From NCBI GenBank assembly GCA_963843975.1, contig CAWJMG010000003.1:780001-812000 (forward strand): a stretch of DNA of 32,000 nucleotides, read 5' to 3'. This DNA is from an uncultured Actinomycetes bacterium (lineage in GTDB: Bacteria > Actinomycetota > Actinomycetes > S36-B12 > CAIYMF01). Both the position numbers and the translations under genes were made by a program. The notes under the pieces were generated by a model. It had not been told where the DNA came from and did not search any database. It saw nothing but the letters and a program-made list of their open reading frames with translations. Positions 3,608 to 20,636 of the stretch are shown here, piece after piece (within the stretch, counting starts at the first letter, position 1; the number at the start of each line of letters is the position of its first letter).

Positions 3608-3817
3608 ATGTGTGCCATGTCCGCGACCAGGGCCTCGACGTGGGAGTACCGCGAGATCACGCTGCCCCGAGGCACCGCGCGTGACGCCGCCCGTGCGGCT
3701 CTGACCGAGCTCGCCGAGCACGGCTCCTGGGAGCTCGCCCGCCTGCGCCTCTACCCCGACGGCCGCCGCAGGGTCTGGCTCCGCCGCCGAGTCCTCCGCG
3801 CCGTCAGAACCGCCTGA
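3608..3817 (+). CDS. DUF5703-like small protein
   Basis: 69 aa (alternative ATG at 3617). WEYREITLPRGTARDAARAALTELAEHGSWELARLRLYPDGRRRVWLRRRV matches my recollection of the DUF5703 family, which commonly follows the RecD-like gene in Actinobacteria. Confidence 0.7.
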   Translation: MCAMSATRASTWEYREITLPRGTARDAARAALTELAEHGSWELARLRLYPDGRRRVWLRRRVLRAVRTA

Positions 3818-3831
3818 CCGACTTCACGTTT

Positions 3832-4012
3832 CTTCCCTTAGGGAAGCAATCGGCAGTTGAACTGCATGATTGCTGCCCAGAATCGTGATCTTGGCGTACG
3901 TGGCTGTCGCGCGGGCCGACGTCGCGGGCAGCAGCCATCGGCGACCAAGATCACGACTTCGGGCGGGATCCGTGCAGTTGAACTGCGTCTTTCGACCCTA
4001 AGGGGCGAAAAG
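3832..4012. repeat. ~180-bp imperfect palindrome (long hairpin/cruciform-capable element) in a convergent intergenic region
   Basis: The arms 3832-3895 and 3945-4012 are reverse complements with a few mismatches or indels. Paired sub-blocks are CTTCCCTTAGGGAAG vs CGACCCTAAGGGGCG, GCAGTTGAACTGC (3853-3865) vs GCAGTTGAACTGC (3974-3986), and TCGTGATCTTGG (3884-3895) vs CCAAGATCACGA (3945-3956). The centre is the palindrome CGACGTCG (~3917-3924). G+C is visibly lower than in the flanks. Confidence 0.8.
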
Positions 4013-4018
4013 TGCAGG

Positions 4019-5467: not shown

Positions 5468-5554
5468 GTCCGGGTGGCGGAATAGGCAGACGCGCTAGCT
5501 TGAGGTGCTAGTGCCCGAAAGGGCATGGGGGTTCAAGTCCCCCCTCGGACACCA
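5468..5554 (+). tRNA. tRNA-Leu (anticodon GAG), class II with long variable arm, CCA encoded
   Basis: Manual fold: acceptor GTCCGGG/CTCGGAC (one G-U pair); anticodon stem CTAGC/GCTAG with loop TTGAGGT (GAG at positions 34-36); variable arm TGCCCGAAAGGGCAT; T arm GGGGG-TTCAAGT-CCCCC; discriminator A followed by CCA. Confidence 0.93.
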
Positions 5555-5555
5555 C
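5531..5555 (+). repeat. attL core (direct repeat copy inside the tRNA-Leu 3' end)
   Basis: 25/25 identity with 17208-17232. Identity extends imperfectly 3 bp upstream (GGgG vs GGaG). Confidence 0.87.
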
Positions 5556-5721: not shown

Positions 5722-6927
5722 TCACCGGCCTCGACGCTCGATCAGAGCAGCCACCGCATCGGCGGCCTCGACCTGGAGCTTCGCAGTCACGTGGCTGTAC
5801 ACGTTCAGCGTGATCGCGACCGTCGAGTGCCCGAGCCGGTCTTGCACGATCTTGGCGGGGATGCCCGCCTGCAGTGCCAACGTGGCCCAGGTGTGACGGA
5901 GGTCGTGCAGGCGGATCGACGGAGAACCCGTGGCGCGGACCGCCGCCTTGAACATCCTTGTGAGGCGCTCGGGGTGGTAGGGGCGACCGTCGGCTCGGGT
6001 GAAGACGAGGTCGTCGACGTCCGCGTTGCCGGTGGTGCCGATCATGAGTCGGTCTTGGGCGCGGAGGGCTTTGTGTGCTCGGAGGACGGCGACGGTTCCG
6101 GGGTCGAGGGCGACGGAGCGTCGGCCTGCAGCGGTCTTGGGGTCGGACCAGACGGGCCGGTCGTCGTCGGTGTCGTGGATGTCGATGAGGGTGCGGACGA
6201 TGGTGATGCGTGCGGCGTCGAGGTCGACGTTGGCCCACGCGAGTCCGAGCGCTTCGCCTCTGCGGAGGCCGGTGGTGGCGAGTAGGTGCCAGAGGGCGTG
6301 CTCTCGGGTGCCGCGGGTGGCGTCGAGGAAGGCCGCGAGCTCGGCGGCGGTCCAGGTCTTCGCTGCGCGGGTGCCGTCGGCTGCGGCGGACAGGCGGGGA
6401 GGTTCGGCCTGGTCGGCGGGGTTGTGGTTGAGGAGTCGGGCTTTGACGGCGGATTTGAGGATGCTGCCAATGATTGTGTGGATGTAGCGGACGGTGCGCA
6501 CGCTGAGCCCGGTGTTGCCGTTGCGGGCTTTGGACCTGTCGGCGAGGCCGTCCTCGAGGAGCCTGGCGTAGAGGCCGGTGAGCTGGCTGCCGGTGATGCG
6601 CTGCAGCGGCGTCCCGCCGAGGGTGGGCAGGACGTGGATGCGGAGGTTCCGCTGGTAGGAGTGCAGCGTGGAGGGCCGCAGCCGCATCCGCGCATTGGGG
6701 AGCCAGTCCCTCTCGACGTAGTCGGCGAGGGTGAGTCGGCTCGGGTCGACGTGGGCGCCGGTGTCCAGCTCGCGCAGCACCTTGGTCAGCGCGGTCTGCG
6801 CGGCGCGTCGGGTCGGGAAGCCGCGTTTGCGCATCTGGCGGCGCTTGTCCCCGGGTGCGGTGATGTCGACGGTGAAGGACCAGGTGCCGTTGGTGTCCTG
6901 GCGGATGCTGCCCCGCCGGCCAGTCAC
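5722..6927 (-). CDS. int: tyrosine-type site-specific integrase with N-terminal arm-binding domain
   Basis: 401 aa with a GTG start. The N-terminus GSIRQDTNGTWSFTVDI...KRRQMRKRGFPTRRAAQTAL looks like an arm DNA-binding domain. The C-terminus has ATTGLRRGEALGLAW, HDLRHTWATLALQAG and LGHSTVAITLNVYSHV (the R..HxxR..Y catalytic signature). Confidence 0.95.
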   Translation of the reverse strand: MTGRRGSIRQDTNGTWSFTVDITAPGDKRRQMRKRGFPTRRAAQTALTKVLRELDTGAHVDPSRLTLADYVERDWLPNARMRLRPSTLHSYQRNLRIHVLPTLGGTPLQRITGSQLTGLYARLLEDGLADRSKARNGNTGLSVRTVRYIHTIIGSILKSAVKARLLNHNPADQAEPPRLSAAADGTRAAKTWTAAELAAFLDATRGTREHALWHLLATTGLRRGEALGLAWANVDLDAARITIVRTLIDIHDTDDDRPVWSDPKTAAGRRSVALDPGTVAVLRAHKALRAQDRLMIGTTGNADVDDLVFTRADGRPYHPERLTRMFKAAVRATGSPSIRLHDLRHTWATLALQAGIPAKIVQDRLGHSTVAITLNVYSHVTAKLQVEAADAVAALIERRGR

Positions 6928-7460: not shown

Positions 7461-10400
7461 TCACCGTCCGAGCGGTTCGGGACCCCTCGGGGGACGCAAC
7501 TGGCGCTGACGATCGCGGGAGTCCGCCTCGCGGTCTCGTCGTGCCGGCAACGGTTCGCGCACGACCACCATCGTGGGGTCATCCGGGTCGCCGGCGAGGT
7601 TGGGGTCGCGGTAGGGCTCATTGGCGCGTCGCTCCCAGCGGCTGCGCCGATCTCGACTCTCGGACAGAGCGGTCGCCTCCTGCTCGCGCGCGCTGCCGTC
7701 GACGACGCCGGCCGCGGTGTCCACGGCGGTTTCGGCGCGGGCCAGCCACTCGCTGGCTGCGCCGACAGTCAGCTGCGCCGTAGCCAGCTCGGTCGCGAGC
7801 TCCCGGCGGCGCCGTCGCGACCACACCGGAAGCCCATCGAGCTCGGCGCTGAGCCGCACGGTCTCCGCGCGCAGCGGGTCGAGCCTGGTCCGCTGCCGGT
7901 CACGCTCGGCGACAGCCTCCTTCAACCGGCTCTCAGCTCGACGGTGCGCGACCGGCGGTTCCGGTGTCAGCCGGGCCGCCTCGGTCGCGTCAAACAGTGC
8001 GGCTCGCGCGTCATCCACGGCGGGAGCGAGCAGGCTATGCGCCGCGCGCTCCCGACCCGTCGTGGTCAAGGCGCGGGCGAGCTGGTCGATCGCCTCTGCA
8101 ATCTCGGGGCTCGCTGGCATTTCCGACCGGACCTGCTGGTCGTCGTGCGGATTTGCGTGGGCGGTCGATAGCGCTGCCCGGTCAGCCGACGGCGCGGGTG
8201 GGTGGTGCGGGCCGGCATCGACCGCTGCGGCCTCGAGGGTGGTGTGGATGTGGTTCTCCAACCGGCCGCGGGTCATGGCGACGTAGAGATGCTCACGATC
8301 CAACCCCGAACGGGCGAGAGTGACGGCGACGTCGGTGGTGGCGCCCTGCGCGGCATCGATGGTCGCCGCCCATCCGTACTCGGTGTGCCGGGCCAGGTAG
8401 GCGGTCGGAATCGTGGTCGTGCCGCGGCCGGCGAGATCCGCCACGACCAGGCCGCTGCCGTCGGCGCTGGTCGCGAGGACCTGGAAGCGGTCGCCGTTGC
8501 GGACGCTGTCTACTCCGAGGTGCAGTGCGGGGGTGTTCTTCTTGGCCATGATCACGTCCCCGGCGCGCCAGTCCCGCAGCTCGGGGCGCCCGCGGGTGCT
8601 GGCCGTGCGCGCCGTCACCATCAGCAAGGCCGGGCCGGTGACCTGACCGGTCGCGATCGCGACGGCACGTGCCCGGGCGTTCAGCGCCGTGACGTCGCTC
8701 CAACCGCGGGCCAGCATCAGCGCATCCCGCCCTCCGGTGACGGCCTGGTGCCAGCGGTCGAACACCGCGTCGGCTGCGTCGTCGCTCGTCGCGGCGGGAT
8801 GGATCCGCCCGTGGGCGGCATACACCTGCAGGATGTCGGGGTCGCCGGCTCGTAGCGCGAGTGTGGCGGCGGCTTCCCACGCGTGCGCGAACCGGTGCAG
8901 CCCTTCGAGTTCGATCACCCGTGCCGGGATAAGCCCGGTGAGGTGCTCGAGCATGCCGCCCGGCGCGCGGATCGCCCCGATCTGGGCGGGGTCGCCCACC
9001 AGCACCAGCCGCGCCCCCACCGCCGCTGCTCGGGTGGTGAGGGCGGCGAGGTCGGCGGTGGCGAGCATCGACGCCTCGTCGACCAGCATCACGTCGCCGC
9101 GCCGCAGACGCCTTTCGTCGAGGCCGCGCACAGGGTTTCTGCTCTGCGGTTCGTCGAGGGCGGCCTGCTGGGTCAGGAACCGCGCCACCGTCGCCCCGGA
9201 CCGCCCGGTCGCTGCGGCGAGCTCGGTCGCGGCCCGCGCCGACGGGCCGAGGGCCAGCACGCGCTCCCCCGCCGCGGACCAGCCCGCCACCGCGGCCCCA
9301 AGCACGGTGGTCTTGCCCGCCCCGGCCGGTGCCACCATCACCGTCACCAGATCCCGGGAGGAAACCAGCCGAACCGCCGCCACCTGCTGCTCCGCCGACA
9401 GCCCGCGCTCCAGAATCGGCTGCAGGACCGTGGGCGGGAGGCGCCGAGGCGGGCGTAGCCCGTCCAGGACCGCCTCGATGATCTTGGCCTCGGTCTCGAC
9501 GACCTCGCGCGAGGCGAACCGGGCGTCCGACGCCCGCGCCGTCGCCCCCGACGGGTCCGCACCCAGACCGACAGCACCCGCAGCGGAATCAGTCAGGGCC
9601 CGCGCGGTCAGGGCCTCGATCATCACGGCAGCCTCGTGCCCGTTGCGCGGCGATCCCGTTCCGATCGCGGGCAGCCGGGCAGCGATGTGCACGGTGAGAT
9701 CGGCCGCCGACCAGATCGCACCGGTTCGCCCGACCGCTGTCACCGCGTCCGTCAGCACCGCGAGCGGGTCCCCGTCCGGTCCCACGCCGGGGCCGCTTGG
9801 GGCATCGGCTCCCGCGCCGAGCTGCTGCCGTCGCGCACTGACAGAGAGTTCGGCTCCCGCAGCGCCCGCGCCCTGGTTGGTGACGGTCTCCGTGACAGTC
9901 GCGACCGCCTCTGTGACGGTGGTGACGGACTCCGTGACGGTCGCGACGGTGCTGGGCTCGCGAGCGTCGGGTGTGGTGACGGCGGTCACGGCCGTCGCGA
10001 CAGTGCCAGTGCCAGCGACGGGCCCGTGAGCGTCGGACGGGGTGACGGATTCGGTGACGGACTCCACGACGGCTGCCAGCGGCGGCCGGCGAAGCGTCGC
10101 TTGCAGCCGGGTGCTGGTCCAACCGAGCGCGGCGGCCTGATCCCGCCACCGCGACCGCAGCACCGTCGCGGGCACGTGGTCGTCCTTGGGCGGGCGCGTG
10201 GCCAGGACCGCGGTCTTGATGATCCGCGCCCGCTCCGCGGCCGTCACCGGCCGCCCCAGCGCCTCCTCCGCGTCCGCGAGTGTCGGGACCGCGTCGGCCA
10301 TCACCGCTGCCGTGCGGGTCGACCACGCCACGAGGAGCTCGTCGGGGACGCCGGCGATCTCGGCCTGCCCGTGCTCGCTGACCGGCCCGAACACCATCCC

Positions 10401-11126
10401 CAGACGTGTGCCGAGCTCGGCGCGCAGCGCGGCCTGGTAGAGCGCGCCGGCGGCCTTCTTGTGATGGAAGACCTCGTAGCCGTCGATGGTGCGCCACACC
10501 CCGTCGCTGCAGCGGACCTTGTTCACCACCAGCGTGTGCGTGTGCAGCTGAGGGTCCCCGGTGCGTGAGGTTGTGTGCTCGAACAGCGCCGCCGCGTACC
10601 CGGCCGTCGCGATCTGCTCCGCGCCGTCGCGGCCCCGCCTTGAGAAGGACGCATGCACCTCCAGGAACCCCAGCGCAGCACTCACAGCCTCGGTGTGCGC
10701 GGCTCGCACCTGCGCAGCAGTCGCGTCATCGGCCAACGCCCACAGCGCCGACACCGACTTGGGGGCCGAGAAGGTCAGGTCGTGCCCTGTCACGGCGTCC
10801 GAACGCCATGCCCGGCCCAGCGCCGCACCTGTGGCCGGGTTCAGGCCTCGCGCGAACAGAGCCTCCAGCTCCCGCTCGTCGACCTCCGCTCCGGCCGTCA
10901 AGCCCAGCTCGGGCAGTCCGGCACCGTGCCAACGGCCGGGCGCGTTGCCACCTTCCGCGTAGTACTCGCACGCACCTCGCGCCACCGAGTCCTGGTAGTA
11001 GCGCCACGACGAGCGGCCGATCTTGGCACTGGACAGCACCAACAACCACCACCCGACAGAATGCACTAGAATCCGGAAACACGTTGCGCTGCAATCGATC
11101 TGGACGGTAACAGGGCTCTCCGACAA
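7461..11126 (-). CDS. MobF-family conjugative relaxase (TrwC/TraA-like) fused to a RecD-like helicase
   Basis: 1221-aa ORF; the more likely start is GTG at 11039 (VLSSAKIGRSSWRYYQDSVA). Relaxase His-triad block: FEHTTSRTGDPQLHTHTLVVNKV. Helicase blocks: Walker A VMVAPAGAGKTTVLG, Walker B DVMLVDEASML, LVLVGDPAQIGAI, and AATIDAAQGATTD...LYVAMTRGR. Confidence 0.92.
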   Translation of the reverse strand: MSESPVTVQIDCSATCFRILVHSVGWWLLVLSSAKIGRSSWRYYQDSVARGACEYYAEGGNAPGRWHGAGLPELGLTAGAEVDERELEALFARGLNPATGAALGRAWRSDAVTGHDLTFSAPKSVSALWALADDATAAQVRAAHTEAVSAALGFLEVHASFSRRGRDGAEQIATAGYAAALFEHTTSRTGDPQLHTHTLVVNKVRCSDGVWRTIDGYEVFHHKKAAGALYQAALRAELGTRLGMVFGPVSEHGQAEIAGVPDELLVAWSTRTAAVMADAVPTLADAEEALGRPVTAAERARIIKTAVLATRPPKDDHVPATVLRSRWRDQAAALGWTSTRLQATLRRPPLAAVVESVTESVTPSDAHGPVAGTGTVATAVTAVTTPDAREPSTVATVTESVTTVTEAVATVTETVTNQGAGAAGAELSVSARRQQLGAGADAPSGPGVGPDGDPLAVLTDAVTAVGRTGAIWSAADLTVHIAARLPAIGTGSPRNGHEAAVMIEALTARALTDSAAGAVGLGADPSGATARASDARFASREVVETEAKIIEAVLDGLRPPRRLPPTVLQPILERGLSAEQQVAAVRLVSSRDLVTVMVAPAGAGKTTVLGAAVAGWSAAGERVLALGPSARAATELAAATGRSGATVARFLTQQAALDEPQSRNPVRGLDERRLRRGDVMLVDEASMLATADLAALTTRAAAVGARLVLVGDPAQIGAIRAPGGMLEHLTGLIPARVIELEGLHRFAHAWEAAATLALRAGDPDILQVYAAHGRIHPAATSDDAADAVFDRWHQAVTGGRDALMLARGWSDVTALNARARAVAIATGQVTGPALLMVTARTASTRGRPELRDWRAGDVIMAKKNTPALHLGVDSVRNGDRFQVLATSADGSGLVVADLAGRGTTTIPTAYLARHTEYGWAATIDAAQGATTDVAVTLARSGLDREHLYVAMTRGRLENHIHTTLEAAAVDAGPHHPPAPSADRAALSTAHANPHDDQQVRSEMPASPEIAEAIDQLARALTTTGRERAAHSLLAPAVDDARAALFDATEAARLTPEPPVAHRRAESRLKEAVAERDRQRTRLDPLRAETVRLSAELDGLPVWSRRRRRELATELATAQLTVGAASEWLARAETAVDTAAGVVDGSAREQEATALSESRDRRSRWERRANEPYRDPNLAGDPDDPTMVVVREPLPARRDREADSRDRQRQLRPPRGPEPLGR

Positions 11127-11389: not shown

Positions 11390-11999
11390 ATGTCCTTGTC
11401 CCAGAACGCCCTGCTCGAACTGCTCTGCGCTCTGGACGCCGCCAATGGCCCAAAACGGGTCGGCCTGTCGCAGCAGCGGATGGATCAGGAACTGATCGAG
11501 GCCGAAGCAACCGAGTGCATCGGTGCCGGCCCGCACGAGCGCGGGGGATCTGGAGCGGGCGATCCCCAAGCTGCAGGCGGGGTCGTTCTTCCCGTGCCTG
11601 CTCGAGCGGCGCCGCCGGCTCGACCAGGCGTTGTTAGCGGTGGTGATGGAGGCCGTAAGTCACCGAAAGCACCGTCCGCAAGGTCGACGACCTGGTGAGG
11701 GCGGCTGGAGCGGGTGAACAAGGAGATCAAGCCTCGCACCGACCTCGTCGGGGTCTCCCCCAACCCGGCCGCCTTGCTGCGCCTGGCCGGCAGCGTTCTC
11801 ATCAAGACCCACGACGAATGGCCGGTCTTCGACCGCCGCCACATCTCCGGAGGATCCATGGCCCAGATCGGTGCCATCCACCCCGACGCGAGCAAGGAAG
11901 GGCGGTCCCCGACCTCATGGCCTCAAGATCTGAACCATCACCACCGCGAAGCCGATCACGACGGCCTCAACTTGCACCACGCGGCGGGACGTGACCTCT
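11390..11999 (+). pseudogene. IS256-family (Mutator-like) transposase relic, with frameshifts and the DDE core deleted
   Basis: Fragments lie in three frames: QELIEAEATECIGAGPHERG (frame of 11390), DLERAIPKLQAGSFFPCLLERRRRLDQALLAVVMEA (frame of 11523), and STVRKVDDLV (third frame). These join directly to the C-terminal block VNKEIKPRTDLVGVSPNPAALLRLAGSVLIKTHDEWPVFDRRHISGGSMAQI (11714 onward). Roughly 300 central codons of a normal IS256 transposase are absent. Confidence 0.8.
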
Positions 12000-12102
12000 G
12001 CGTGGGCCAACCCCTCAGCAGGACTATTGATCCTTGGGTTGGCGTGGCGCTACCTTCAACAGGGTCCGCGGTGTCGCAACTAGTGGAGCGGGGGAGGGCC
12101 AG

Positions 12103-12573
12103 ATGAGGCGAAGGCTTTCATTATTCGCAGCAATTGTGCTGGTTGTCGGTCTCGTCGGCCTCTCAGGGACGGCTCCTGCCAGTGCGGCGTCATGCTCAGG
12201 TTCTCAGATCGAGCATCTTGCAGAAGTGGACTCCGGGACTAACTACGGCTACCTCGACGTCTATTGGAACTCCAGCACAGGAAAGAACTGCGCGCGCAAC
12301 AACAAGACGCATTTCTACGGCACTCCGTCGTTCACCTACGCGTACATCTCGGTTTGCAGCGAGACGGTGGAGGGCGGGCGTTGCACGCGGACGGCGTATC
12401 AGCAGGATCCTCCGAACGGCAGCACCCCATGGTTCAGCTACTACGCAGGACCCGTCTCTGTCTCCGCAGTGAATCACTGCATCTTCGCCTTCGGTGAGAC
12501 CAGCGTCAGCAGTACGTCGGTTCCTTGGACAGCTTCGGCTGCAACCAGCCCCTTCGCGTCTCACTGCAGTTGA
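12103..12573 (+). CDS. small secreted cysteine-rich protein (possibly SapA-like)
   Basis: 156 aa from ATG 12103, with a GGAGCGGGGGAGGG RBS-like run upstream. Signal peptide MRRRLSLFAAIVLVVGLVGLSGTAPASA. The mature part has six Cys. YWNSSTGKNCA and YYAGPVSVSAVNHC recall Streptomyces spore-associated protein A-like proteins (from memory, unverified). Codon usage is lower in G+C. Confidence 0.7.
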   Translation: MRRRLSLFAAIVLVVGLVGLSGTAPASAASCSGSQIEHLAEVDSGTNYGYLDVYWNSSTGKNCARNNKTHFYGTPSFTYAYISVCSETVEGGRCTRTAYQQDPPNGSTPWFSYYAGPVSVSAVNHCIFAFGETSVSSTSVPWTASAATSPFASHCS

Positions 12574-12587
12574 TTTCGGGGGTACTG

Positions 12588-13202
12588 ATGAAGCGTGTGG
12601 GCAGTGGCAACGCCTCGCTCGTCGTCGTGATCACCGCTAGCGTGCTTGCGGTTGTCGGATTGTGGACCGTTTCCAGTAACTCCCGTCCTCAGGAAGTTCT
12701 TGGAACGTCGGCAAAGCCCGCGGCGGCCAGCGGTGGCTCCCCATCCGGCGAATCACGGACCACGACGCAGGTGGTGGCAGTGGGTGAGGCAGTGCCCATC
12801 GGCACATCCGGCGCGGAACTGGTCTTGACCGCCACGACAGCGTGCATTCGGCCAGCCAAGGCCACGCCACCAATCGTCGCCAAGGACATCCCAGAGGGCT
12901 GCTTCAGCGTCGACGACAAGAACCTAGATCTCGCCGCAAATAGGTTCACGGCCACCTCATACGGGTCGGGCGAGTGGGCCGTTGTTTATGGCATCGCCGG
13001 CCCCGAAGCAGTCAGCCTGAAGGCGTGGAACAGGGCAGGCTCTGCCGACGGATCCATCGTGTCGACTGGGGCAGGAGATTGGGTGGCGTTCTACGCGGTT
13101 CTGCCGTTCGAGGAGTTCGTGGCAGACGCCGAGCACCCCGTGCCTCCGCGCGACAATGTCGAGGTGTACGACTCAGCTGGGCGCGTCCTGACGCGGAACT
13201 GA
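12588..13202 (+). CDS. membrane-anchored/secreted hypothetical protein
   Basis: 204 aa from ATG 12588, 15 nt after the previous stop. An N-terminal hydrophobic segment (ASLVVVITASVLAVVGLWTV) is followed by a Ser/Ala/Gly/Thr-rich linker and a ~130-aa domain. I recognise no family. Confidence 0.65.
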   Translation: MKRVGSGNASLVVVITASVLAVVGLWTVSSNSRPQEVLGTSAKPAAASGGSPSGESRTTTQVVAVGEAVPIGTSGAELVLTATTACIRPAKATPPIVAKDIPEGCFSVDDKNLDLAANRFTATSYGSGEWAVVYGIAGPEAVSLKAWNRAGSADGSIVSTGAGDWVAFYAVLPFEEFVADAEHPVPPRDNVEVYDSAGRVLTRN

Positions 13203-13454
13203 TGTTGGCGTTATAACACCCGACGGCGGCGCGAGGTGGGTCGGCCAAGGGCTCGTGCGCCTGCCCCGCCGGCCCTTTCGGGCCAGAGGACCCGAACTTG
13301 AGGACCCCTGCACGTAGCGCGGAACAGCGGCGTTACTCATCAGCGGTCGCCCCTAGCTGACGAGGCGTTTCGACCGAACTCGGGGTGCCTTAGCAACCGA
13401 TCTGACTCGCGTGCCGACGAGTCGCCGCTCTTGCTCGCGACGGAACGCCGCGCA

Positions 13455-13519: not shown

Positions 13520-13937
13520 GCGGCAACGTTGTGCTGGGCGTTAGCCAGCTCGGCGGGTGCGAGCCCGGTAGTGCATTGGCTTTGCTCCCCGGACAAGTGG
13601 CGCAAGCGGGCAACTGGCGGCGGCCGGTCATCAATCATCGGCCCGATGTGTGAAAGCGCCTCGGCCTTGCCCAAAGCACGAACGGACACCCCGTTCAAGT
13701 GAGTGGTAACAAGCGCCCAACACATGGGCAATGAGCCGGTCTTTCCAGCAAGCACCCCGCAACAGGCACGCGGACGCTCTCGGCGTCATCGTCACTCGCC
13801 CACGCTGGGCGCGGTCCGCTGCTCAATGCTTGACCGCGGACGCGAATCTCCCTAGTTTCGTACCACTACGGGGGGCTCGATTCACTTCAGCAAGAACGGC
13901 TTGCTGGCTCCATCCCCCTGAGATGAGGGGAGAAGCC

Positions 13938-14381
13938 ATGAAGCGCGGCATCGCTGCAATCTTCGCTTCCATGGTGATAGCGCTTGCCCTTGCTCAGCCG
14001 GCTCAAGCGGAGGGCAGTTGGACGAGTTATTGGTCCTATGTCTTGACGGGCAAGGACACTCGAACGTGGACAGATGGCAACACTGATTCGGTGGGCACGA
14101 TCACGTCGTTCCGCGACTGCCACTTCTACAACAACACGCCGAGCACCTTCAGGAACATTCAGGTGCAGCTGACCTATGAGAATACGTTCAGTCCCGACGA
14201 GAACATGGGCCAAGTCGTCTACAACTGCGGCAGCTCAACGGTGTGGCAGGTGTACAACTATGGGCGGGTCAAGGCAGGCAACTACCACGAGACGCTGATC
14301 TTTGTTAACGGCACGCCCACGCCGCCCAACCGCCTCGACGTAGGTACGGCATCGGCACCTGGCATCAAGGTCTCATATTGA
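13938..14381 (+). CDS. secreted hypothetical protein (first gene of the cargo ABC operon)
   Basis: 147 aa from ATG 13938, with GAGGGGAGAAG RBS-like sequence upstream. Signal peptide MKRGIAAIFASMVIALALAQPAQA, then a mature part starting EGSW. The mature domain is rich in W/Y/N/T, has two Cys, and matches no family I recognise. Its stop TGA 14379-14381 overlaps the TTG start of the next gene. Confidence 0.7.
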   Translation: MKRGIAAIFASMVIALALAQPAQAEGSWTSYWSYVLTGKDTRTWTDGNTDSVGTITSFRDCHFYNNTPSTFRNIQVQLTYENTFSPDENMGQVVYNCGSSTVWQVYNYGRVKAGNYHETLIFVNGTPTPPNRLDVGTASAPGIKVSY

Positions 14382-15139
14382 GATCGTCCACCTCATACGA
14401 AGGATCGCCCGGCGCGTCCGATGAGCGCCGGGCGATTCTCTTCCAAGACGTGTCGTTCTCCTACGGACGAACGATCGTATTCCAACAGTTCTCATGCGAG
14501 TTCCCCGTTGGGCGAACCTTGCTGCTGGGCCCAAACGGCGCTGGAAAGTCGACCTTGCTGCGACTCGCGGTGGGCCTTGCACGGTGCAGCGCCGGGACTC
14601 TTGTTCCTTCGCCAGATGCGTCGATCGGATACATGTCGCAACAGATTCGCCCTCTTGGAGGGTTGTCGGTTCGTGAACAGGTCGCTTACTGCGGATGGCT
14701 GAAGGGCCTTGACAAGCGGACAGCGCTTACCGAAGCGGCGCTGGCTCTCGAACGAGTGGACTTGGCTGGCGTGGCCTCCACCCAATCCACACGACTGTCC
14801 GGGGGTCAGATCAGACGCCTGGGCCTGGCTCAGTCGCTCGTAGGTTCACCCGCCTGGCTGCTGTTGGATGAGCCGACTGCCGGTCTCGACCCGGACCAGC
14901 GTGATCGTTTTGCGCGCTTGATCGGCGAACTCGACATCCCCGTTGTTGTTGCGACGCACCAGGTTGAGGGCATCGAATCCCTCTTTGACCACGTCATCGT
15001 GCTGTTGGCCGGTCGTGCGCCCTACGCCGCGGCAGTCACTGACTTTCTGGCCCTTGACAGCAGCCGTCGAGGCGATGCGGTCACGGCCTACCGCGCGGCA
15101 TGCGCGATTGTCGAATCGCGTCCGGGGCTCGTCGCCTGA
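14378..15139 (+). CDS. ABC transporter ATP-binding protein
   Basis: 253 aa. Walker A GPNGAGKST, signature LSGGQIRR, Walker B WLLLDEPTAGLD, H-loop VVATHQ. The TTG start overlaps the upstream stop (TTGA). Confidence 0.9.
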   Translation: MRSSTSYEGSPGASDERRAILFQDVSFSYGRTIVFQQFSCEFPVGRTLLLGPNGAGKSTLLRLAVGLARCSAGTLVPSPDASIGYMSQQIRPLGGLSVREQVAYCGWLKGLDKRTALTEAALALERVDLAGVASTQSTRLSGGQIRRLGLAQSLVGSPAWLLLDEPTAGLDPDQRDRFARLIGELDIPVVVATHQVEGIESLFDHVIVLLAGRAPYAAAVTDFLALDSSRRGDAVTAYRAACAIVESRPGLVA

Positions 15140-16410
15140 TGCGTCTTCGAAGTGCTGCGTGGTTCGCCTTCCTGTGGCTCACGCTTCCCCTCGCGGCCAT
15201 TGGTGGTCAACTCTTTCTCGGGTCAACGTTTCCAACGGGTACCGGCTACGGCATATCCGAGAACATTCGCGCATACGGTGCCCTGGTCCTGATTGCCCCG
15301 GTGGTGGCATTGGGCGGCGCGCTAACCGGCGGCCGACTCCGGCGATCCGGATTGCTGCAGCACTCGGGTCCCCACCGACGTGGGGCGTCGCGCGTCTGGT
15401 TCAACCTTGCAGCGCTCCCTGTTGTGGCGTTCTCTGCGCTCCTCTGGGCCCTGATGGCATCCGCAGCCGCCTCATCCGGCTCGAGCTATCCGCTCCTCGA
15501 CCCGCGGCTGGCTGTCGCTGCGGCGCTGCAGTCGGCCGCCTACGTGCTGCTCGGTTTGGCATTGGGCAGCAATCTTCCGTCAGTCATGGCAGTCCCCGTT
15601 GCACTCGTTTTGCCCTATGTCCTCATCGCCTTTCCCCCCGCGCTGAGCACCTATTGGATCAGGCACGTCACCGGCATATCCAACAACTGCTGCTGGATCT
15701 ACGAGGATTTGCCCAGTCGTGCGCTGGGTGCGCACCTAGCCTTCTCTCTGTCGCTGGCGCTTGCTGCGGCGGCCGCCCTTCCGGCCTGGAACGCGCGCGC
15801 CAACGTCACTCGGGCGCTCCTCCTGACCCTTGCCTCTGTGTCCCTTCTGACTGCCTTCCTCTCAGCTCAGATCTTTGGCCCATCAGCCAGCGAAAGTAGG
15901 GCCGGGGCTCCCGATTGCAGCTCCGCCTCGGGTGTTGAGTTGTGCTTGTGGTCCGAGCACGAGAAGAACCGGAGCGAAGCTGAACAAGTTCTCCAGCGAA
16001 TCCTCAGCCAAGCTGCCGGCGTTGACATCCCCGACAGGTTTACAGAGTTGGATCCGGGTCTAGTCCGTTGGCCATCAAGCTCATGGGACGCGTCGTCCGG
16101 GAGCAGAGAGAAGTTGCTTGCGGGTGCCGTCTCAGCCTTGTTTCCGGCGACACAGTGCACCGAACAGGGAACTAGCGGTTTGGGGACGGCGAGTCCGCAG
16201 CAAGGCCCCGACGATGGGCCAATAGTCAGGGCGTGGTGGAGCGGACGACTCGGTCTTGATGTCGAAGAGGCCCTCACTGCGGGCGGCGCGACCGATGAGC
16301 AGCGCGAAAGCCTTGCGAAGATCGTTGCGCTGACCTTGCCGGAGCAGAAGGACGCCATCAACACCCTGGTGCAGCGGGCCGCTCGAGTCTGTTCAGGTAC
16401 CGTCAATTGA
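15139..16410 (+). CDS. polytopic membrane protein with a C-terminal hydrophilic Cys-containing domain (putative atypical ABC permease partner)
   Basis: 423 aa from ATG 15139, overlapping the ATPase stop by 1 nt (TGATG). The first ~255 aa contain about six hydrophobic segments, followed by ~170 aa of hydrophilic sequence with four Cys. I recognise no family. Confidence 0.7.
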   Translation: MRLRSAAWFAFLWLTLPLAAIGGQLFLGSTFPTGTGYGISENIRAYGALVLIAPVVALGGALTGGRLRRSGLLQHSGPHRRGASRVWFNLAALPVVAFSALLWALMASAAASSGSSYPLLDPRLAVAAALQSAAYVLLGLALGSNLPSVMAVPVALVLPYVLIAFPPALSTYWIRHVTGISNNCCWIYEDLPSRALGAHLAFSLSLALAAAAALPAWNARANVTRALLLTLASVSLLTAFLSAQIFGPSASESRAGAPDCSSASGVELCLWSEHEKNRSEAEQVLQRILSQAAGVDIPDRFTELDPGLVRWPSSSWDASSGSREKLLAGAVSALFPATQCTEQGTSGLGTASPQQGPDDGPIVRAWWSGRLGLDVEEALTAGGATDEQRESLAKIVALTLPEQKDAINTLVQRAARVCSGTVN

Positions 16411-16985
16411 TTCTTTGGCTGAAATCTCATTTCGAACCCGCCGGCTTTGCACTCGTCGTAGTCGCCACGCTTGCCGAGGGCTGGGTCGGAGGTCGACCAA
16501 TGCCGGTTCTCCGGCTTGGTTTGGGCGATGCTCCCTTCTCGGTGCTGCTGCCGGCCCTCATTGCCACCGGAGTGGCCAGCGGTCTGCAGCGGGGCCTACT
16601 CGGGTTTGAGGCAGTAGCGGTTCGGCCGACCCCCTTCGTGTCACGTTCGGCCATCGTTGCCGTGATCTTTGGGATCACGCTCACCGTCTTCGCCACTGGC
16701 GGCACATCGCTTGCGGGCGTCACCGCGCGAAATCTCTGTGGCTACTTGGGCGCCGCACTCCTTTCGTTTCGCCTCTTCGGTGGCCTGGCTGCTTTGATCG
16801 TCGCGCCTGCGTCAGCGGTGGTTGCCTCGGTCTTAGGTTCCGACGGTTCAATTGTGTGGTGGGTGCTGCGCCCTGCTGGTCACTGGCCGTCACTGGTGGC
16901 TGCAGGCGTCCTTTTCCTTGTAGGAGGATGGATAGGGACATCACGGGAAACCATGCGGCGTCGCTCTTCCGTGGATTTCAGCTGA
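16407..16985 (+). CDS. hydrophobic membrane protein, unknown function
   Basis: 192 aa. The TTG start overlaps the previous stop (TTGA); an alternative internal ATG would start at MPVLRLG. It has five to six hydrophobic segments. This is the last gene before attR. Confidence 0.6.
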   Translation: MILWLKSHFEPAGFALVVVATLAEGWVGGRPMPVLRLGLGDAPFSVLLPALIATGVASGLQRGLLGFEAVAVRPTPFVSRSAIVAVIFGITLTVFATGGTSLAGVTARNLCGYLGAALLSFRLFGGLAALIVAPASAVVASVLGSDGSIVWWVLRPAGHWPSLVAAGVLFLVGGWIGTSRETMRRRSSVDFS

Positions 16986-17070
16986 CTCAGCTCCTCGTGT
17001 CGTCAAAGGCGGCGGGAGCAGCGCCCCGTTGCTGCCTGAAAGACGCGGCGGGCTCGTGGTCAGGGCGTCC

Positions 17071-17089
17071 CGGTCACAGAAATGGTCAC
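17071..17089 (+). promoter_or_regulatory. putative integrase arm-type / Xis binding repeats (attR side)
   Basis: cGGTCAC (17071-17077), spacer AGAAA, TGGTCAC (17083-17089), 119 bp before the attR core. A related TGGTCAg lies at 17057-17063. Confidence 0.55.
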
Positions 17090-17207
17090 AGACGCCCCGG
17101 CAGCAACTCGCACAGTGCAGTCCGTCCTGTTCCGCTCCATCCCGCTGACCAGCGCAAACGGCACTGTGGACACCATCGCGGTCGCCTACGACAGGGCCCT
17201 ACTCGGA

Positions 17208-17232
17208 GTTCAAGTCCCCCCTCGGACACCAC
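17208..17232 (+). repeat. attR core (direct repeat copy)
   Basis: GTTCAAGTCCCCCCTCGGACACCAC, identical to 5531-5555. The upstream part of the tRNA is not duplicated here. Confidence 0.87.
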
Positions 17233-17281: not shown

Positions 17282-17917
17282 TCAGGCAGCCACGGGTGCG
17301 CGGCCCACGGAGTCGATGAGCGTCGCGAACGCGCGGCATCCGGCCGGCTGCAGGTGGATGTGGTCGGACCACGTCCACGTCGCGAGGTTCGGCTCGGACT
17401 TCGCGTTCCAGTCGGCCAGCCGCGTGTTCGGGAATCGCCACGCCGCGTGGCGGATCGCGGTGTTGCTGCGCAGCTCATGGGAGTAGCGGCCGTCGTTCGG
17501 CAGCTGGATGGTGATCCAGACGACGATGCGCTTGGACCCCAGCACCTTCATGATCGCGTCGATCTGCTGGTCGGTGACGCCGCCGTTCGTGCCCACGTGC
17601 ACGGCCACGAGGTGCGGCAGCTTCGTGCCCATCGACGCCAGGACGTCGCGCACCGCGCGAGCCTGCCGGCTGCCCTTCGCGTCGTACGACCAGCCCTTGG
17701 CTGCGACGCACGTCCGAGCGCCCAGGAGCACCGAGTCGCCGATCACGAAGGCCGGGCCGACATACCTGGTCGGCGCAGGCGGAGTCGTAGGAAGCCCGAC
17801 GGGAACCGTGGTCGTACCGCCGTCGGAGACCATCGCCTGGGCAGCCGTGGGCGCCCAAGGCACGACGACCAGCGCAGCGGTCGCGAGGACGAGGGCAGTA
17901 CGTCGTCGGCCCAGCAC
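17282..17917 (-). CDS. secreted SGNH/GDSL-like hydrolase domain protein
   Basis: 211 aa. Signal peptide ending AAQA. Block I VIGDSV, block III HVGTNGG, block V SDHIH (DxxH). Confidence 0.75.
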   Translation of the reverse strand: MLGRRRTALVLATAALVVVPWAPTAAQAMVSDGGTTTVPVGLPTTPPAPTRYVGPAFVIGDSVLLGARTCVAAKGWSYDAKGSRQARAVRDVLASMGTKLPHLVAVHVGTNGGVTDQQIDAIMKVLGSKRIVVWITIQLPNDGRYSHELRSNTAIRHAAWRFPNTRLADWNAKSEPNLATWTWSDHIHLQPAGCRAFATLIDSVGRAPVAA

Positions 17918-18017
17918 CTCGGCCTCCTCGCCTCGGCTGACGCCACCACGCTAGCCAGGGCTGTGCGCGATGTCCCGGTATCCGGTGCCGAGGGCCCCGT
18001 AGGAGGCGTACGCCGGG

Positions 18018-18818
18018 TCAGCGGCCGAGCGTGAAGCGCAGAGCGCCGCCGAGGCCCCCGAGCAGGGCGCGCCGCCGCAGGCCGAACGCGAGGCGCACCG
18101 CGGGCGCCTTCCAGCCGAAGACCCGGTCGAACACCACCGCGCGGGCACGCCGGTCGGCATCGGTCCCCCAGCGCGCGCCTGAGCTGTCGTCCGGATGCAT
18201 CGCGACCACGACCGGCCCGTGCAGTCCGCGCCCGCCGGCGCGCAGGAGGTCGGCGCAGAAGATGTACTCGTCGCCGAGGTAGTTCTCGGCCCCTGCGCCG
18301 AATCGCTCGTCGAAGCGGATCCCTCGTGCGCGCACGGCGGGAACGCGCACGAGCATCTCGTACGTCGCCGCCTTGCCGCTGTTGCGCACGCTCAACGGGA
18401 CGACGGCGGCTGGGTAGTCCTTGCGCATGCGTCCGTGCTCGTCCCGCGCCGCGGCGAGCAGGATGTCCGCGGCCGGATCGGCATCGAGGAGCGCGACGCC
18501 CTCGAGAATCCCGTCCCAGTCGAACTCGACGTCGTCGTCAGCGAACAGCAGGTACTCGGTCGCGGTCGAGTCCAGGACGAGGTTGCGGCTCTTGGCCACG
18601 CCCCACGCCATCTGCTCGAGGATCACGACGTCCGAGCGCGAGGTGAGGGACGCGGGCAACGTGGAGCGCCACTCGACGGAGTCCGGGTTCTGCACGGACA
18701 CGACGACCGCGAGGCGTGGGTCCTGGGGCGGCGGCGCGACGTTGCGGACGCGGTCGGCCGTCGTCGAGTAGCCGAGGGTGATCCGCGCGGTCACGGCGTC
18801 AGTCGTCCTCGTCGTCAT
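18018..18818 (-). CDS. GT-A fold (family 2-like) glycosyltransferase
   Basis: 266 aa. LAVVVSVQN near the N-terminus and LLFADDDVEF (DxD motif). It overlaps the 3' end of the upstream membrane-protein gene by 20 nt. Confidence 0.75.
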   Translation of the reverse strand: MTTRTTDAVTARITLGYSTTADRVRNVAPPPQDPRLAVVVSVQNPDSVEWRSTLPASLTSRSDVVILEQMAWGVAKSRNLVLDSTATEYLLFADDDVEFDWDGILEGVALLDADPAADILLAAARDEHGRMRKDYPAAVVPLSVRNSGKAATYEMLVRVPAVRARGIRFDERFGAGAENYLGDEYIFCADLLRAGGRGLHGPVVVAMHPDDSSGARWGTDADRRARAVVFDRVFGWKAPAVRLAFGLRRRALLGGLGGALRFTLGR

Positions 18819-19693
18819 CGTCGTCGGGCCGCTTGTCCTTGATCTCGGCGTTGGCCACTGCTCGCGCGTAGCGCATGACGGCGCCCGACAGGCTGGCGAA
18901 CGTGCCGTTCTGGAGGCGTGCGCCGAGGAACAGCACCACGGTGGTGGAGATGCTCACGAGGCCGTTCACGCTCATGACGATCAGCCCGCCGAGGAGGATC
19001 ACGACACCGACCGACGAGATCAGGGTGCCGACCTCGGCGCTCATGATGCGCGAGCGGAAGCTTCTGGTAGGCCGACACCTGGTTCTTGGAGAACCGCTGC
19101 TCGTGGTAGCGCTTCTGCTGGACCATCTGCGCCTTGAACAGGCGGGCGACCACCTCGGTGAGCAGGAGGATCAGCAGGATGTTGAAGGCGCCGTAGACCG
19201 GTGCCAGCCAGACGAAGAATGCGGCCATGACCGCGAGCTGCGTGGCGAACGACAGCACGTTCACGAGCTCGAGGCCGAGGGCCCACTCCCAGCTCGCCTT
19301 GCCACCGGTCGCCTGGCGGCCCGTCTTGCGGAAGACCGTGTCGAAGAACTGCACCCGGTAGATGCGCTGCGCGTAGTGGGCCACACGCGTGAGCAGGAAG
19401 AGGAAGAAGAAGATCAGGAGCTCGCCGACGATCAGCTTGAGGCCGGCGCCGTTGCGCTCCTTCGTGATGACGTCCGTGAACAGCTTGGTGACGAACAGCT
19501 CGGTGACGGGGATGAACGCACCGAGCGCGACGAGGAACAGCAACATGCCTCGGTCGCGGCCCTTGGGGATCAGCTGCTCGTACGTGTTGTGCAGCGAGCG
19601 CGCCAGACTCAGGATGGCGATCTGGAAAGGGTCGCGCATGAGCTCGCGGAAGGCTCCACGCGAGGGCAGCAGCGACGGTTTCTTGGCCATCAT
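18799..19693 (-). pseudogene. polytopic membrane protein (ABC-exporter-TMD-like, no ATPase domain), reading frame broken at ~19060
   Basis: Frame A (from ATG 19693/19690) reads a sensible hydrophobic protein up to ...FSKNQVSAYQK (K codon 19063-19061), then Arg/His/Pro-rich nonsense. The +1 frame continues FRSRIMSAEVGTLISSVGVVILLGGLIVMSVNG... to the stop at 18799 (track ORF 18799..19044). One extra base lies near 19060. Confidence 0.6.
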
Positions 19694-19757
19694 CCTTCTT
19701 ATGCGGGGTGGTGCCGACGTCCGGGACGGCGGCACCACGGTGCGGATCGGGCTGTGA

Positions 19758-20636
19758 CTACTTGCGCTTCTTGTTCCCGGCGCTGAGGACCGCGGCGACG
19801 GCGGCCTTCAGATGGGACTCGACCTCGTCCTTCTTCGCCTCGCTCACGCGGATGTCGCGGACGAGGTTGTGCAGATCCTGGTGGCGCAGGTCCAGCGGCA
19901 CGACCTGCGGGTTCATCACCTCGACGTCGGCGCCGAGGGCATAGTCCTCGTACTTGATGCCGAGGCCGTGGACGTTGCCCTCGAAGCCCTCGAAGGTCAC
20001 GAGGCCGCAGGGGATGCCGTAGCTCTGGCAGACGATCATCACGTGCATCGCGCTCGTGACGACGGCGTCGTACTCGTTGAGCGTGGCGCAGAAGGCAGCG
20101 ATGTCCTCGCTGCGGCCCATGAGAACGGGGTACTCGTCGACGTTGTCGGGCAGCTGCATCGGGATGTTCTTGTGCGAGAAGTGCCGGACGAAGGCGATGC
20201 GACCGTTGGTGGCGCCTCGCTCGACCGGGACGAGGCGGTCCATGAGCAGGCCGGGGTCTCCGAAGGCTCCGACGACGGGGCCGCCGGACTCGCGGACGAC
20301 CCGGGCCGTGATCGGGCCGCGGACCGAGACGTAGTGCGCCTTCTTCGCCATCTCGATGTCGTCGCGCGAGATGCCCGTGCCGACGACGATCGAGCTCGGG
20401 CGGATGAAGCGCCCGATGGAGCCCAACGAGACGAGGTGCGGCTTGTTCGTCGCCTTCGTGACGGCCTGCAGGCGGATGTTGGCGTCGGTGTACTGCGCCA
20501 CCGCGAGCGGGCTGAGCCAGTCGCCGAAGTTGCCCGGGAACGGCTTGGACCACCAGGCGAGGCGGATCGTGGAGTCGCTGCCCCGCGCCGAGTACTCCAT
20601 GAACGCCTCGGAGGCGGAGCGGATCACGAGCTGCAC
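19758..20636 (-). CDS. polysaccharide pyruvyl transferase domain protein
   Basis: 292 aa. WWSKPFPGNFGDWLSPL and VVTSAMHVMIVCQSYGIP are the conserved pyruvyl-transferase blocks. The start is uncertain (GTG 20636 or ATG 20600), and it may be the C-terminal half of a fusion with the upstream ORF. Confidence 0.85.
   Translation of the reverse strand: MQLVIRSASEAFMEYSARGSDSTIRLAWWSKPFPGNFGDWLSPLAVAQYTDANIRLQAVTKATNKPHLVSLGSIGRFIRPSSIVVGTGISRDDIEMAKKAHYVSVRGPITARVVRESGGPVVGAFGDPGLLMDRLVPVERGATNGRIAFVRHFSHKNIPMQLPDNVDEYPVLMGRSEDIAAFCATLNEYDAVVTSAMHVMIVCQSYGIPCGLVTFEGFEGNVHGLGIKYEDYALGADVEVMNPQVVPLDLRHQDLHNLVRDIRVSEAKKDEVESHLKAAVAAVLSAGNKKRK

Follow-up and report, generated by a model that had tools for sequence, protein, structure and literature searches.

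Three kinds of described system invite comparison with the locus reported here. Lactococcin 972-type loci, i.e., lcn972-orf2-orf3 on plasmid pBL1 and the pneumococcal scbABC, combine a bacteriocin (Lcn972) with a mature part of about 66 amino acids (aa) and a partner of about 650 aa with seven transmembrane (TM) helices. ATP-binding cassette (ABC) triads such as LanFEG, DrrABC and LnrLMN consist of one ATPase and two different six-helix permeases and serve to protect the cell itself from compounds that act on its membrane or wall, often under envelope-stress regulation. NosDFY(L), finally, serves an extracytoplasmic protein partner. The lactococcin 972 locus is plasmid-borne and aids plasmid maintenance (PMC4055356), and the title of a reference listed in that paper links Lcn972 resistance to an extracytoplasmic function (ECF) anti-sigma factor. 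Here, we describe a four-gene cassette in a window of 32,000 nucleotides (the whole stretch of DNA that was analyzed) from contig CAWJMG010000003.1 of an uncultured Actinomycetes bacterium. The cassette comprises the genes g1 to g4 at positions 13938-16985 of the plus strand; g1 encodes a secreted protein, while g2, g3 and g4, together termed the triad, encode an ABC ATPase and two membrane proteins. Largely by analogy, and somewhat short of calling it probable, we favor the reading that the cassette is a toxin-plus-self-protection module carried by mobile elements, in which a Sec-secreted, bacteriocin-like g1 would be accompanied by an ABC immunity transporter. A likeness to bacteriocin and immunity layouts was already remarked on in a first-pass annotation of the sequence and remains the best fit.

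In its logic, the cassette would have its closest precedent in the lactococcin 972 loci, to which it is not homologous. Sizes differ (123 aa for mature g1, 423 aa for g3), the ATPase gene precedes that of the membrane protein, g4 is an extra membrane protein and g3 ends in a Cys-rich C-terminal ectodomain. No Lactococcin_972 match was obtained for g1 and seven of its relatives in Pfam (E ≤ 10), nor for g1 in NCBIfam (E ≤ 1), and the Lcn972 chain was found neither in a profile search of the Protein Data Bank (PDB) with the g1 family nor among the top 50 Foldseek matches of the low-confidence g1 model. Likewise, neither g3 (E ≤ 1) nor any of approximately 33 aligned relatives matched the NCBIfam model for the bacteriocin-associated seven-TM immunity protein, which we take to be TIGR01654. 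The triad resembles LanFEG, DrrABC and LnrLMN in its three genes with overlapping junctions, its single type of nucleotide-binding domain (NBD), related to the DrrA, NodI and CcmA group, and its two unlike membrane subunits. Unlike in those systems, however, neither g3 nor g4 is matched by models of ABC2_membrane or lantibiotic permeases, no relation between the two proteins is detectable, g3 is extended by a seventh helix and an ectodomain of 175 aa, and no lantibiotic or polyketide genes lie near the cassette. No LanE- or LanG-type match was present in Pfam or NCBIfam, and the neighboring genes encode an integrase, a relaxase, a transposase fragment and orphan secreted proteins. The likeness to NosDFY(L) lies in NosY as the best structural match of g3, in NosF among the nearer solved NBDs and in the extracytoplasmic partner, but the cassette lacks a NosD-like beta-helix protein and a NosL lipoprotein, its ectodomain is fused to the permease, its context is unrelated to N2O reductase and the structural match is weak. 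As the first-pass annotation had anticipated, profile searches place the four proteins in no characterized system.

All four open reading frames (ORFs) were confirmed in the window (Table 1). Their junctions overlap as previously described, by TTGA between g1 and g2 (14378-14381), TGATG between g2 and g3 (15137-15141) and TTGA between g3 and g4 (16407-16410). The overlap of g1 and g2 follows from taking TTG 14378 as the g2 start; no other canonical start in frame precedes the conserved first strand of the ATPase. The same TTG is found in L002 (L-numbers denote comparison loci), a relative from a Nanopelagicales metagenome-assembled genome (MAG) that is about 73% identical to the window cassette, together with an ATG 11 nt past the g1 stop. 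For g3, the start was set at ATG 15139 rather than at the upstream ATG 15100, because its relatives all begin with MR.R. TTG 16407 as the g4 start is supported by conservation, as both the 31-aa N-terminal extension and the CAATTGA junction are kept in L002. Automatic gene calls on an identical Logan contig (L001) start g2 at window position 14633 (L001 3052), past Walker A, which leaves 168 aa, and g4 at the internal ATG 16500 (L001 4919), which leaves 161 aa. A wrong start of the same kind shortens the ATPase of L011 to 139 aa. Entries of the family in databases are therefore often truncated. In the comparison with L002, where dS is about 1, the ratio of nonsynonymous to synonymous substitution rates (dN/dS) is 0.086 for g1, 0.150 for g2, 0.144 for g3 and 0.159 for g4. 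Purifying selection thus acts on all four, which makes them real genes rather than chance ORFs.

Table 1. Positions in the window of the cassette genes, their expression signals and the element that carries them.
Feature	Position	Strand	Description
g1	13938..14381	+	147-aa Sec-secreted protein, predicted beta-rich, 2 invariant Cys, PD(E) motif, orphan family
g2	14378..15139	+	ABC ATPase, 253 aa from TTG 14378
g3	15139..16410	+	423 aa, seven predicted TM helices, CC loop C184-C185, four-Cys DUF7224-like ectodomain
g4	16407..16985	+	192 aa, ~six hydrophobic segments, conserved third member of triad
Promoter-like element	13830..13858	+	TTGACC, 17-nt spacer, TAGTTT
GC-rich hairpin, 15 bp	14401..14439	+	Just 3' of g1 stop, inside annotated g2 5' end
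tRNA-Leu(GAG)	5468-5554	+	attL in its 3' end at 5528-5555
Tyrosine integrase of element	5725..6927	-	PF00589 at 4e-24, SAM-like and arm-binding domains
TrwC-type relaxase/helicase of element	7464..11126	-	PF08751 at 1.8e-83, AAA_30
Repeat element CCGGTCACAGAAATGGTCACAGA	17070..17092	+	Between cassette and attR, conserved in L002
attR	17205..17232	+	Copy of tRNA-Leu 3' end, 27/28 nt identical to 5528-5555

All four genes recur in unchanged order in Nanopelagicales MAG islands, on two metagenome contigs and on two Streptomyces linear plasmids. In the Nanopelagicales MAGs (L002-L007, L009, L010 and L015), g1 is 84% identical and is found with the ATPase, g3 (72%) and g4 (73%). More distant versions of g1 are present in L008 (47% identity), with the ATPase 4 nt further on, and in L011 (30%; E 6e-12 by hidden Markov model, HMM), upstream of the ATPase, a g3 at 25% identity and g4. 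The linear plasmids of S. antimycoticus (L018) and Streptomyces sp. S501 (L019) carry all four genes, with local HMM E-values of 1e-20 to 8e-23 for g1, 1e-80 and 4e-62 for g3, and 1e-18 and 8e-22 for g4. These plasmid homologues of g3 were missed by tblastn with g3; they were reached via g1 and confirmed by local HMMs. Altogether, g1 is paired with the triad in at least six diverged loci, among which identity falls to 29-34% for g1 and to about 25% for g3. A gene-neighborhood comparison had been proposed as a check on the link between g1 and the transporter, and their co-conservation bears it out. The DNA similarity between the window and L002 is limited to 13827-16895 (73.7% identity), i.e., to the cassette and its promoter-like element, so the cassette moves as a unit with its putative promoter. 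Mobile DNA surrounds it in each visible context: a tRNA-Leu element in the window, a tRNA-Arg island in the MAGs and the two linear plasmids. The MAG island measures 5.8 kb, is delimited by the tRNA-Arg gene and a 26/28 repeat of the tRNA 3' end and includes integrase remnants; the GC content of the MAG hosts (0.60-0.65) equals that of the cassette. These observations support the view of the cassette as one functional unit on a mobile element. A scan of genome contigs with g3 returned two Nanopelagicales MAG loci only, a metagenome scan with g1 the known locus only and a scan of viral contigs no relative.

A further plasmid, from Streptomyces sp. S8 (L020), contains a truncated g1 homologue of 90 aa (5974-6246) without the triad. 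A sigma-70 family gene and an HNH gene precede this fragment; the HNH gene (3790-4461) lies about 1.5 kb upstream of it, with no triad there. Further downstream (9292-10475), the plasmid carries genes annotated as adenylate/guanylate cyclase and as Pycsar effector.

The g1 start codon is preceded by GAGGGGAGAAGCC, with GGGGAG as Shine-Dalgarno sequence. The signal peptide, with its cleavage site between AQA and EG, leaves a mature part of 123 aa with two Cys, as the first-pass annotation had found, and without a lipobox or anchor. The protein is rich in W, Y, N and T; aromatic and His residues are conserved and both Cys are invariant across all homologues, which number seven among 5.8 billion clusters, plus those of L011, L018 and L019. 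The earlier failure to place g1 in a family was reproduced, as no relative was found in Pfam, in NCBIfam or, by g1-family profile search, in the PDB, and the Pfam search gave no NEAT or substrate-binding protein (SBP) family. The AlphaFold2 (AF2) model is all-beta at low confidence (pLDDT 49). Its Foldseek matches (carbohydrate-binding modules (CBMs) of families 35, 6 and 32, lambda gpJ and viral jelly rolls) were dismissed, being E values of about 0.1 on a model of pLDDT 49. The structural comparison suggested in the first-pass annotation thus failed for g1; for g3, it gave a confident model with weak matches to ABC-2/type V permeases, discussed below. A secreted two-Cys protein of 140 aa in L016 (9261-9683) was not counted as a g1 homologue (hhalign E 0.34, HMM E 0.35). 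It is encoded directly upstream of the second Streptomyces triad of that locus, and its Cys and PD positions align with g1 by eye; it may be a very remote analogue.

Within the triad, g2 is the canonical ABC ATPase that it was initially taken for. It scores 75.2 bits against PF00005 (cut-off 25) and contains GPNGAGKST (Walker A), LSGGQ (signature), LLLDEP (Walker B) and ATHQ (H-loop). DrrA, NodI and CcmA are its nearest NCBIfam models, and the ABCA NBDs, ABC-F proteins and NosF its nearest solved relatives in the PDB. For g3, the score against DUF7224 (PF23866) is 20.6 bits (E 4.8e-4), below the gathering cut-off of 27 bits. Based on full-length homology and shared invariant residues, g3 can nonetheless be assigned to the DUF7224 family. 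It aligns end to end with 33 family members, 27 of which match DUF7224 at E ≤ 0.01 (best 6.7e-35), and shares with them the motifs AFPPA..P.WLRH..G....CC and C.WPEH. Nine residues are invariant (R81, G143, W173, R254, C260, C269, W271, C340 and C418), including the four ectodomain Cys. A full HMMER scan recovered 441 representatives, 251 of them at E ≤ 1e-10 and nearly all 400-450 aa long. The family is visible only by such a scan, because word-indexed protein searches saturate on Ala/Leu-rich membrane proteins (three matches for g3, 14 for the g3-family profile). DUF7224 is a family without described function and is not mentioned in the literature searched. Every g3 relative examined has an ABC ATPase upstream and, where the sequence continues, a hydrophobic protein of 190-230 aa downstream, with junctions that overlap or nearly abut, usually by a 4-nt overlap. 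Complete triads are present in the window, L002, L011, L012 (two), L014, L017, the P0173 contig, L018 and L019; L016 has one complete triad and a second copy that ends with the locus after the g3 relative. The triad is a widespread actinobacterial module, and as far as family membership is concerned, the first-pass verdict was therefore too pessimistic.

The AF2 model of g3 is confident (pLDDT 89.9, pTM 0.87). In it, a short helix at the N-terminus is followed by seven TM helices, TM5 and TM6 are separated by another short helix and the CC loop, and the C-terminal domain is of alpha/beta type. Basic residues (Arg and Lys, counted by eye) are concentrated in the loops TM2-3 and TM6-7 and at the N-terminus. 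With seven helices and this positive-inside count, the N-terminus is placed inside and the C-terminus outside, so that the CC loop and the four-Cys domain (approximately residues 250-423, about 175 aa) are extracytoplasmic, which fits the invariant cysteines of both. The ectodomain also has conserved Trp, Pro, Glu and His residues. Of the initial description of g3, the four-Cys domain stands, whereas the estimate of about six TM segments gives way to seven in the model, which places the domain outside the cell. The leading Foldseek matches in the PDB are NosY (7o0y_D, E 0.02, probability 0.97), ABCH, ABCA1/4/7, ABCG and PmtCD. These are ABC-2/type V permeases, and for g3 the matches, weak as they are, speak against the statement that the partners of g2 are not ABC-2-like. 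For the isolated ectodomain, a PDB profile search gave no meaningful match. The other membrane protein, g4, has no Pfam or NCBIfam match and no profile similarity to the g3 membrane core, and neither protein matches an ABC2_membrane-type model in Pfam. Conserved residues of g4 are R80, R108, G112, G115, W152 and P156, and its size, topology and invariable position suggest that it is the second membrane half. With moderate confidence, the model points to the triad as a divergent ABC-2/type V system with a fused ectodomain.

Not all triads are accompanied by g1. The place of g1 upstream of the triad is taken by an ECF sigma factor and a multi-TM zinc anti-sigma (ZAS) protein with HxxxCxxC in L014 and, on the malQ side, in Streptomyces chromosomes. 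The syntenic order in Streptomyces is malQ, ECF sigma, multi-TM ZAS anti-sigma, ATPase, g3-like, g4-like, HNH endonuclease and MscS, often with a second DUF7224 triad downstream (L012, 3451-7967 and 10172-12998; also L016 and L017). L014 (3886-7892) has the same order of sigma, anti-sigma and triad, adjoining argS. No published ECF group could be assigned to these sigma factors from the literature. Genes of the HNH endonuclease family recur up to about 1 kb downstream of DUF7224 triads (L012 8173-8709, L016 7114-7650, L017 7093-7629 and L018 9895-10566). This recurrence covers Streptomyces chromosomes and the plasmid L018, and synteny and a functional link are both conceivable.

As to expression, the TTGACC and TAGTTT hexamers are kept in L002, there with a spacer of 18 nt, exactly where the DNA similarity to the window begins, and may act as the promoter of the cassette. 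A generic scan gave no sigma-70 consensus promoter and no terminators above shuffle expectation; it missed the element because its -10 hexamer matches only three of the six TATAAT positions. The hairpin that follows g1 has a folding energy of -36 kcal/mol (z -4.4), and 0/200 shuffles fold as well. Equivalent hairpins follow g1 in L002, L018 and L019 (z -3.0 to -4.05). Both stem arms in L002 are near-identical to those in the window, by inspection, while the loop has diverged; the still stronger hairpins of L018 and L019 (z -3.5 and -4.05) lie within g1-g2 spacers of 90-133 nt. Folding of the g1-g2 region revealed no hairpin after g1 in L008 and L011, and none comparable is present after g4. 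The distance between g1 and g2 ranges from -4 to +133 nt, in contrast to the overlapping or near-overlapping junctions within the triad. A fixed stoichiometry of the four proteins, as read earlier from the three overlaps, is thus not upheld, since tight overlaps are conserved only within the triad, and a hairpin and variable spacing follow g1. Judged from these patterns, g1 is probably made in excess over the triad, via attenuation or transcript stabilization. In the window and L002, the hairpin may instead tie g2 translation to ribosomes finishing g1, so it would be either an attenuator or a coupling structure.

These elements can be combined in a tentative mechanism. The g1 gene would be expressed from its own promoter and its product exported via the Sec pathway. 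The mature protein (about 13 kDa), presumably disulfide-bonded and beta-rich, would be released and act on the envelope of competing actinobacteria. The products of g2, g3 and g4 would assemble into one ABC machine, with two g2 ATPases beneath a heterodimer of g3 and g4, in which g3 would provide an ABC-2-like core and, by way of a seventh helix, carry its Cys-rich DUF7224 domain on the cell exterior, and g4 would be its small six-helix partner. Driven by ATP, this machine would keep g1 away from the membrane or wall of the producer, likely recognizing it through the ectodomain. An excess of g1 would be permitted by the hairpin behind its gene, while the three transporter genes would be translationally coupled. 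ECF-linked Streptomyces triads without g1 could then be inducible resistance versions of the same machine.

Several observations favor this toxin and self-protection reading. As g1 has a Sec signal peptide and needs no dedicated exporter, the ABC machine is not explained by g1 secretion. The co-inheritance of g1 and the triad across deep divergence, their carriage on plasmids or islands in each visible context and the gene order, with the structural gene first, then the hairpin and then the coupled transporter genes, all support it. Known peptide-immunity and extrusion systems belong to the ABC-2/type V class, the one indicated by the ATPase and by the fold of g3, and triads that are widespread without g1 behind an ECF sigma and a ZAS anti-sigma form the pattern expected of orphan resistance modules. 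A Sec-exported g1 that always precedes an ABC machine, the mobile carriage and the widespread orphan triads behind regulators of envelope-stress type would find their simplest model in a toxin with self-protection. Other observations weigh against it. Many membrane-active bacteriocins are cationic, while mature g1 is slightly acidic (about 10 D/E versus 8 K/R, counted from the sequence). In the one pair compared, g1 is the most conserved of the four genes by dN/dS and has no sign of diversification. With no family, no solved relative and a low-confidence model, neither a toxic nor a binding activity can be read from g1, and Pfam and NCBIfam revealed no sequence homology to any known bacteriocin or immunity family. 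The ABC-2 fold match of g3 is weak (E 0.02, TM-score 0.24-0.35), and ABC2_membrane_3 is touched by only one of the 33 g3 relatives (E 0.012). Finally, a structural gene, a hairpin and transporter genes are also the layout of binding-protein-dependent systems.

Some of these points fit other readings. The triad could be an ATP-driven extracytoplasmic machine rather than a pump, in which movement of DUF7224 folds, loads, releases or wall-attaches g1 as its client. Such a machine would resemble NosDFY acting on periplasmic NosD or the mechanotransmission of FtsEX and LolCDE, and its ECF-linked versions would signal to the membrane anti-sigma. The conserved 175-aa ectodomain with its invariant Cys, Trp, Pro, Glu and His residues, the best structural match to NosY, whose complex serves a periplasmic partner, the strict co-conservation of g1 with the triad and the ECF-linked partner, a multi-TM ZAS anti-sigma without an obvious sensor domain, would all suit it. 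We nevertheless regard it as rather unlikely, given that most triads lack a g1-like gene, so that g1 cannot be a general client, that an anchorless g1 is expected to diffuse off a monoderm cell, that the NosY match is weak (E 0.02) and that the association with mobile elements has no obvious rationale here. A related and more doubtful idea retains the non-pumping device and turns it into a sensor, in which the Cys-rich ectodomain would recognize a protein ligand (g1 then being a new toxin or signal family in mobile cassettes) and, in Streptomyces chromosomes, report the encounter to the multi-TM zinc anti-sigma. This would amount to an ABC-to-ECF-sigma pathway analogous to BceAB-BceS flux sensing, built from unrelated parts.

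Equally doubtful is a general exporter for envelope-stress efflux or detoxification of small molecules or lipids, with g1 as an accessory lectin-like protein that binds the surface or wall and travels along by chance, rather than serving as toxin or substrate. DrrA, NodI and ABCA-type exporters as nearest relatives of the ATPase, the ECF linkage typical of envelope-stress regulons, the W/Y/N/T-rich composition of g1 and a low-confidence g1 model that retrieves only CBM-like and jelly-roll beta-sandwiches agree with this. The fold matches are not significant, however (E about 0.1 on a pLDDT 49 model), and a specific functional link is indicated by six lineages in which g1 and the triad are conserved together, with a shared putative promoter, at identities of 25-30%. 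Uptake, in which g1 would be a secreted hemophore-like capture protein made in excess that hands its ligand to the DUF7224 ectodomain for import, is improbable: although the order of binding-protein gene, hairpin and transporter genes is the classic importer layout and the aromatic and His residues of g1 are conserved, the ATPase and fold indicate the exporter-type ABC-2 class, g1 has no lipobox or anchor as found in Gram-positive binding proteins and it matches no NEAT or SBP family. Hardly any weight is given to an anti-phage defense cassette. It would account for the carriage as mobile-element cargo and for the generic matches of g2 to ABC-type ATPases of defense systems, but PADLOC matches are limited to the generic P-loop/ABC part of g2, with none for g1, g3 and g4; moreover, its components are either secreted or membrane proteins, nuclease and effector domains are lacking and the viral contigs scanned contain no relative.

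The cassette is not categorically new. It includes a catalogued, unstudied DUF family, is probably of ABC-2 type and matches known bacteriocin-immunity cassettes in its logic. The novelty lies in the g1 family, in its strict pairing, on mobile elements, with the DUF7224 triad and in the ECF-linked triads that exist in parallel. If the toxin and immunity reading is true, g1 founds a new family of Sec-secreted protein bacteriocins in Actinobacteria, where few protein bacteriocins have been characterized. If the triad is a mechanotransducing or sensing device, it extends the range of ABC systems that do work outside the membrane. In addition, the cassette offers a first functional handle on DUF7224, with its hundreds of representatives, its conserved ECF-sigma-linked Streptomyces loci and no literature found. 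At 3.2 kb, self-contained with a putative promoter of its own and demonstrably able to move between distantly related actinobacteria, it lends itself to direct testing by heterologous expression.

The genomic setting agrees with the mobile element proposed in the first-pass annotation, which is delimited by the tRNA-Leu gene and the 28-nt att repeat (Table 1). Because the att repeats enclose the integrase, the relaxase and the cassette, the cassette is the right-end cargo of an 11.7-kb integrative mobilizable element. GC content is 60-65% between 11 and 17 kb, compared to about 72% for the window. The foreign codon usage noted earlier is equally evident, as the GC content at third codon positions (GC3) is 0.64-0.75 in the cassette versus 0.85-0.95 in flanking host genes. 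The CCGGTCACAGAAATGGTCACAGA element keeps its relative position in L002 despite diverged flanking DNA and may be an integrase arm-type site. The shared sequence 3' of g4 (17070-17092 in the window, about 13092-13114 in L002) reads CCGGTCAC(A/G)..AATGGTCAC(A/G)GA. A second shared stretch, ACTCGGAGTTCAAGTCC, follows about 130 nt further on (window 17202-17218, L002 about 13245-13262); in the window, it forms the start of attR and thus of the tRNA-Leu 3' end. The tRNA-Arg island of L002 therefore holds the remnant of a tRNA-Leu-type att site, a sequence trace which suggests that the cassette was ancestrally right-end cargo of a tRNA-Leu-targeting element and was later nested in another island.

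Other features of the element are less directly connected to the cassette. A 20-nt repeat, GGTGACGGACTCCGTGACGG, occurs in four copies at 9879-10072, inside the relaxase gene on the opposite strand, where it presumably encodes a repeated peptide motif. A Mutator-family transposase, of which a C-terminal fragment remains (11714-12106; PF00872, E 2.6e-4), lies between relaxase and cargo genes and may mark a cargo-acquisition junction. Upstream of the cassette lie two orphan cargo genes, for a secreted Cys-rich protein of 157 aa (12100-12573) and a 204-aa protein with an N-terminal TM segment (12588-13202), neither of which has a match in Pfam, NCBIfam or PADLOC. Since they are absent from the MAG islands, they are cargo separate from the cassette. 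The 157-aa protein has tblastn matches of 33-37% in hypothetical genes of Streptomyces plasmids and of a Nonomuraea replicon. Host proteins of the window cluster at ≥90% identity with proteins of Longivirga aurantiaca and Nanopelagicales MAGs. To the right of attR, the minus-strand host genes at 17282-20636 encode a GT2-like glycosyltransferase, a polysaccharide pyruvyl transferase and several unannotated membrane or secreted proteins, and look like a cell-surface polysaccharide locus adjoining the integration site.

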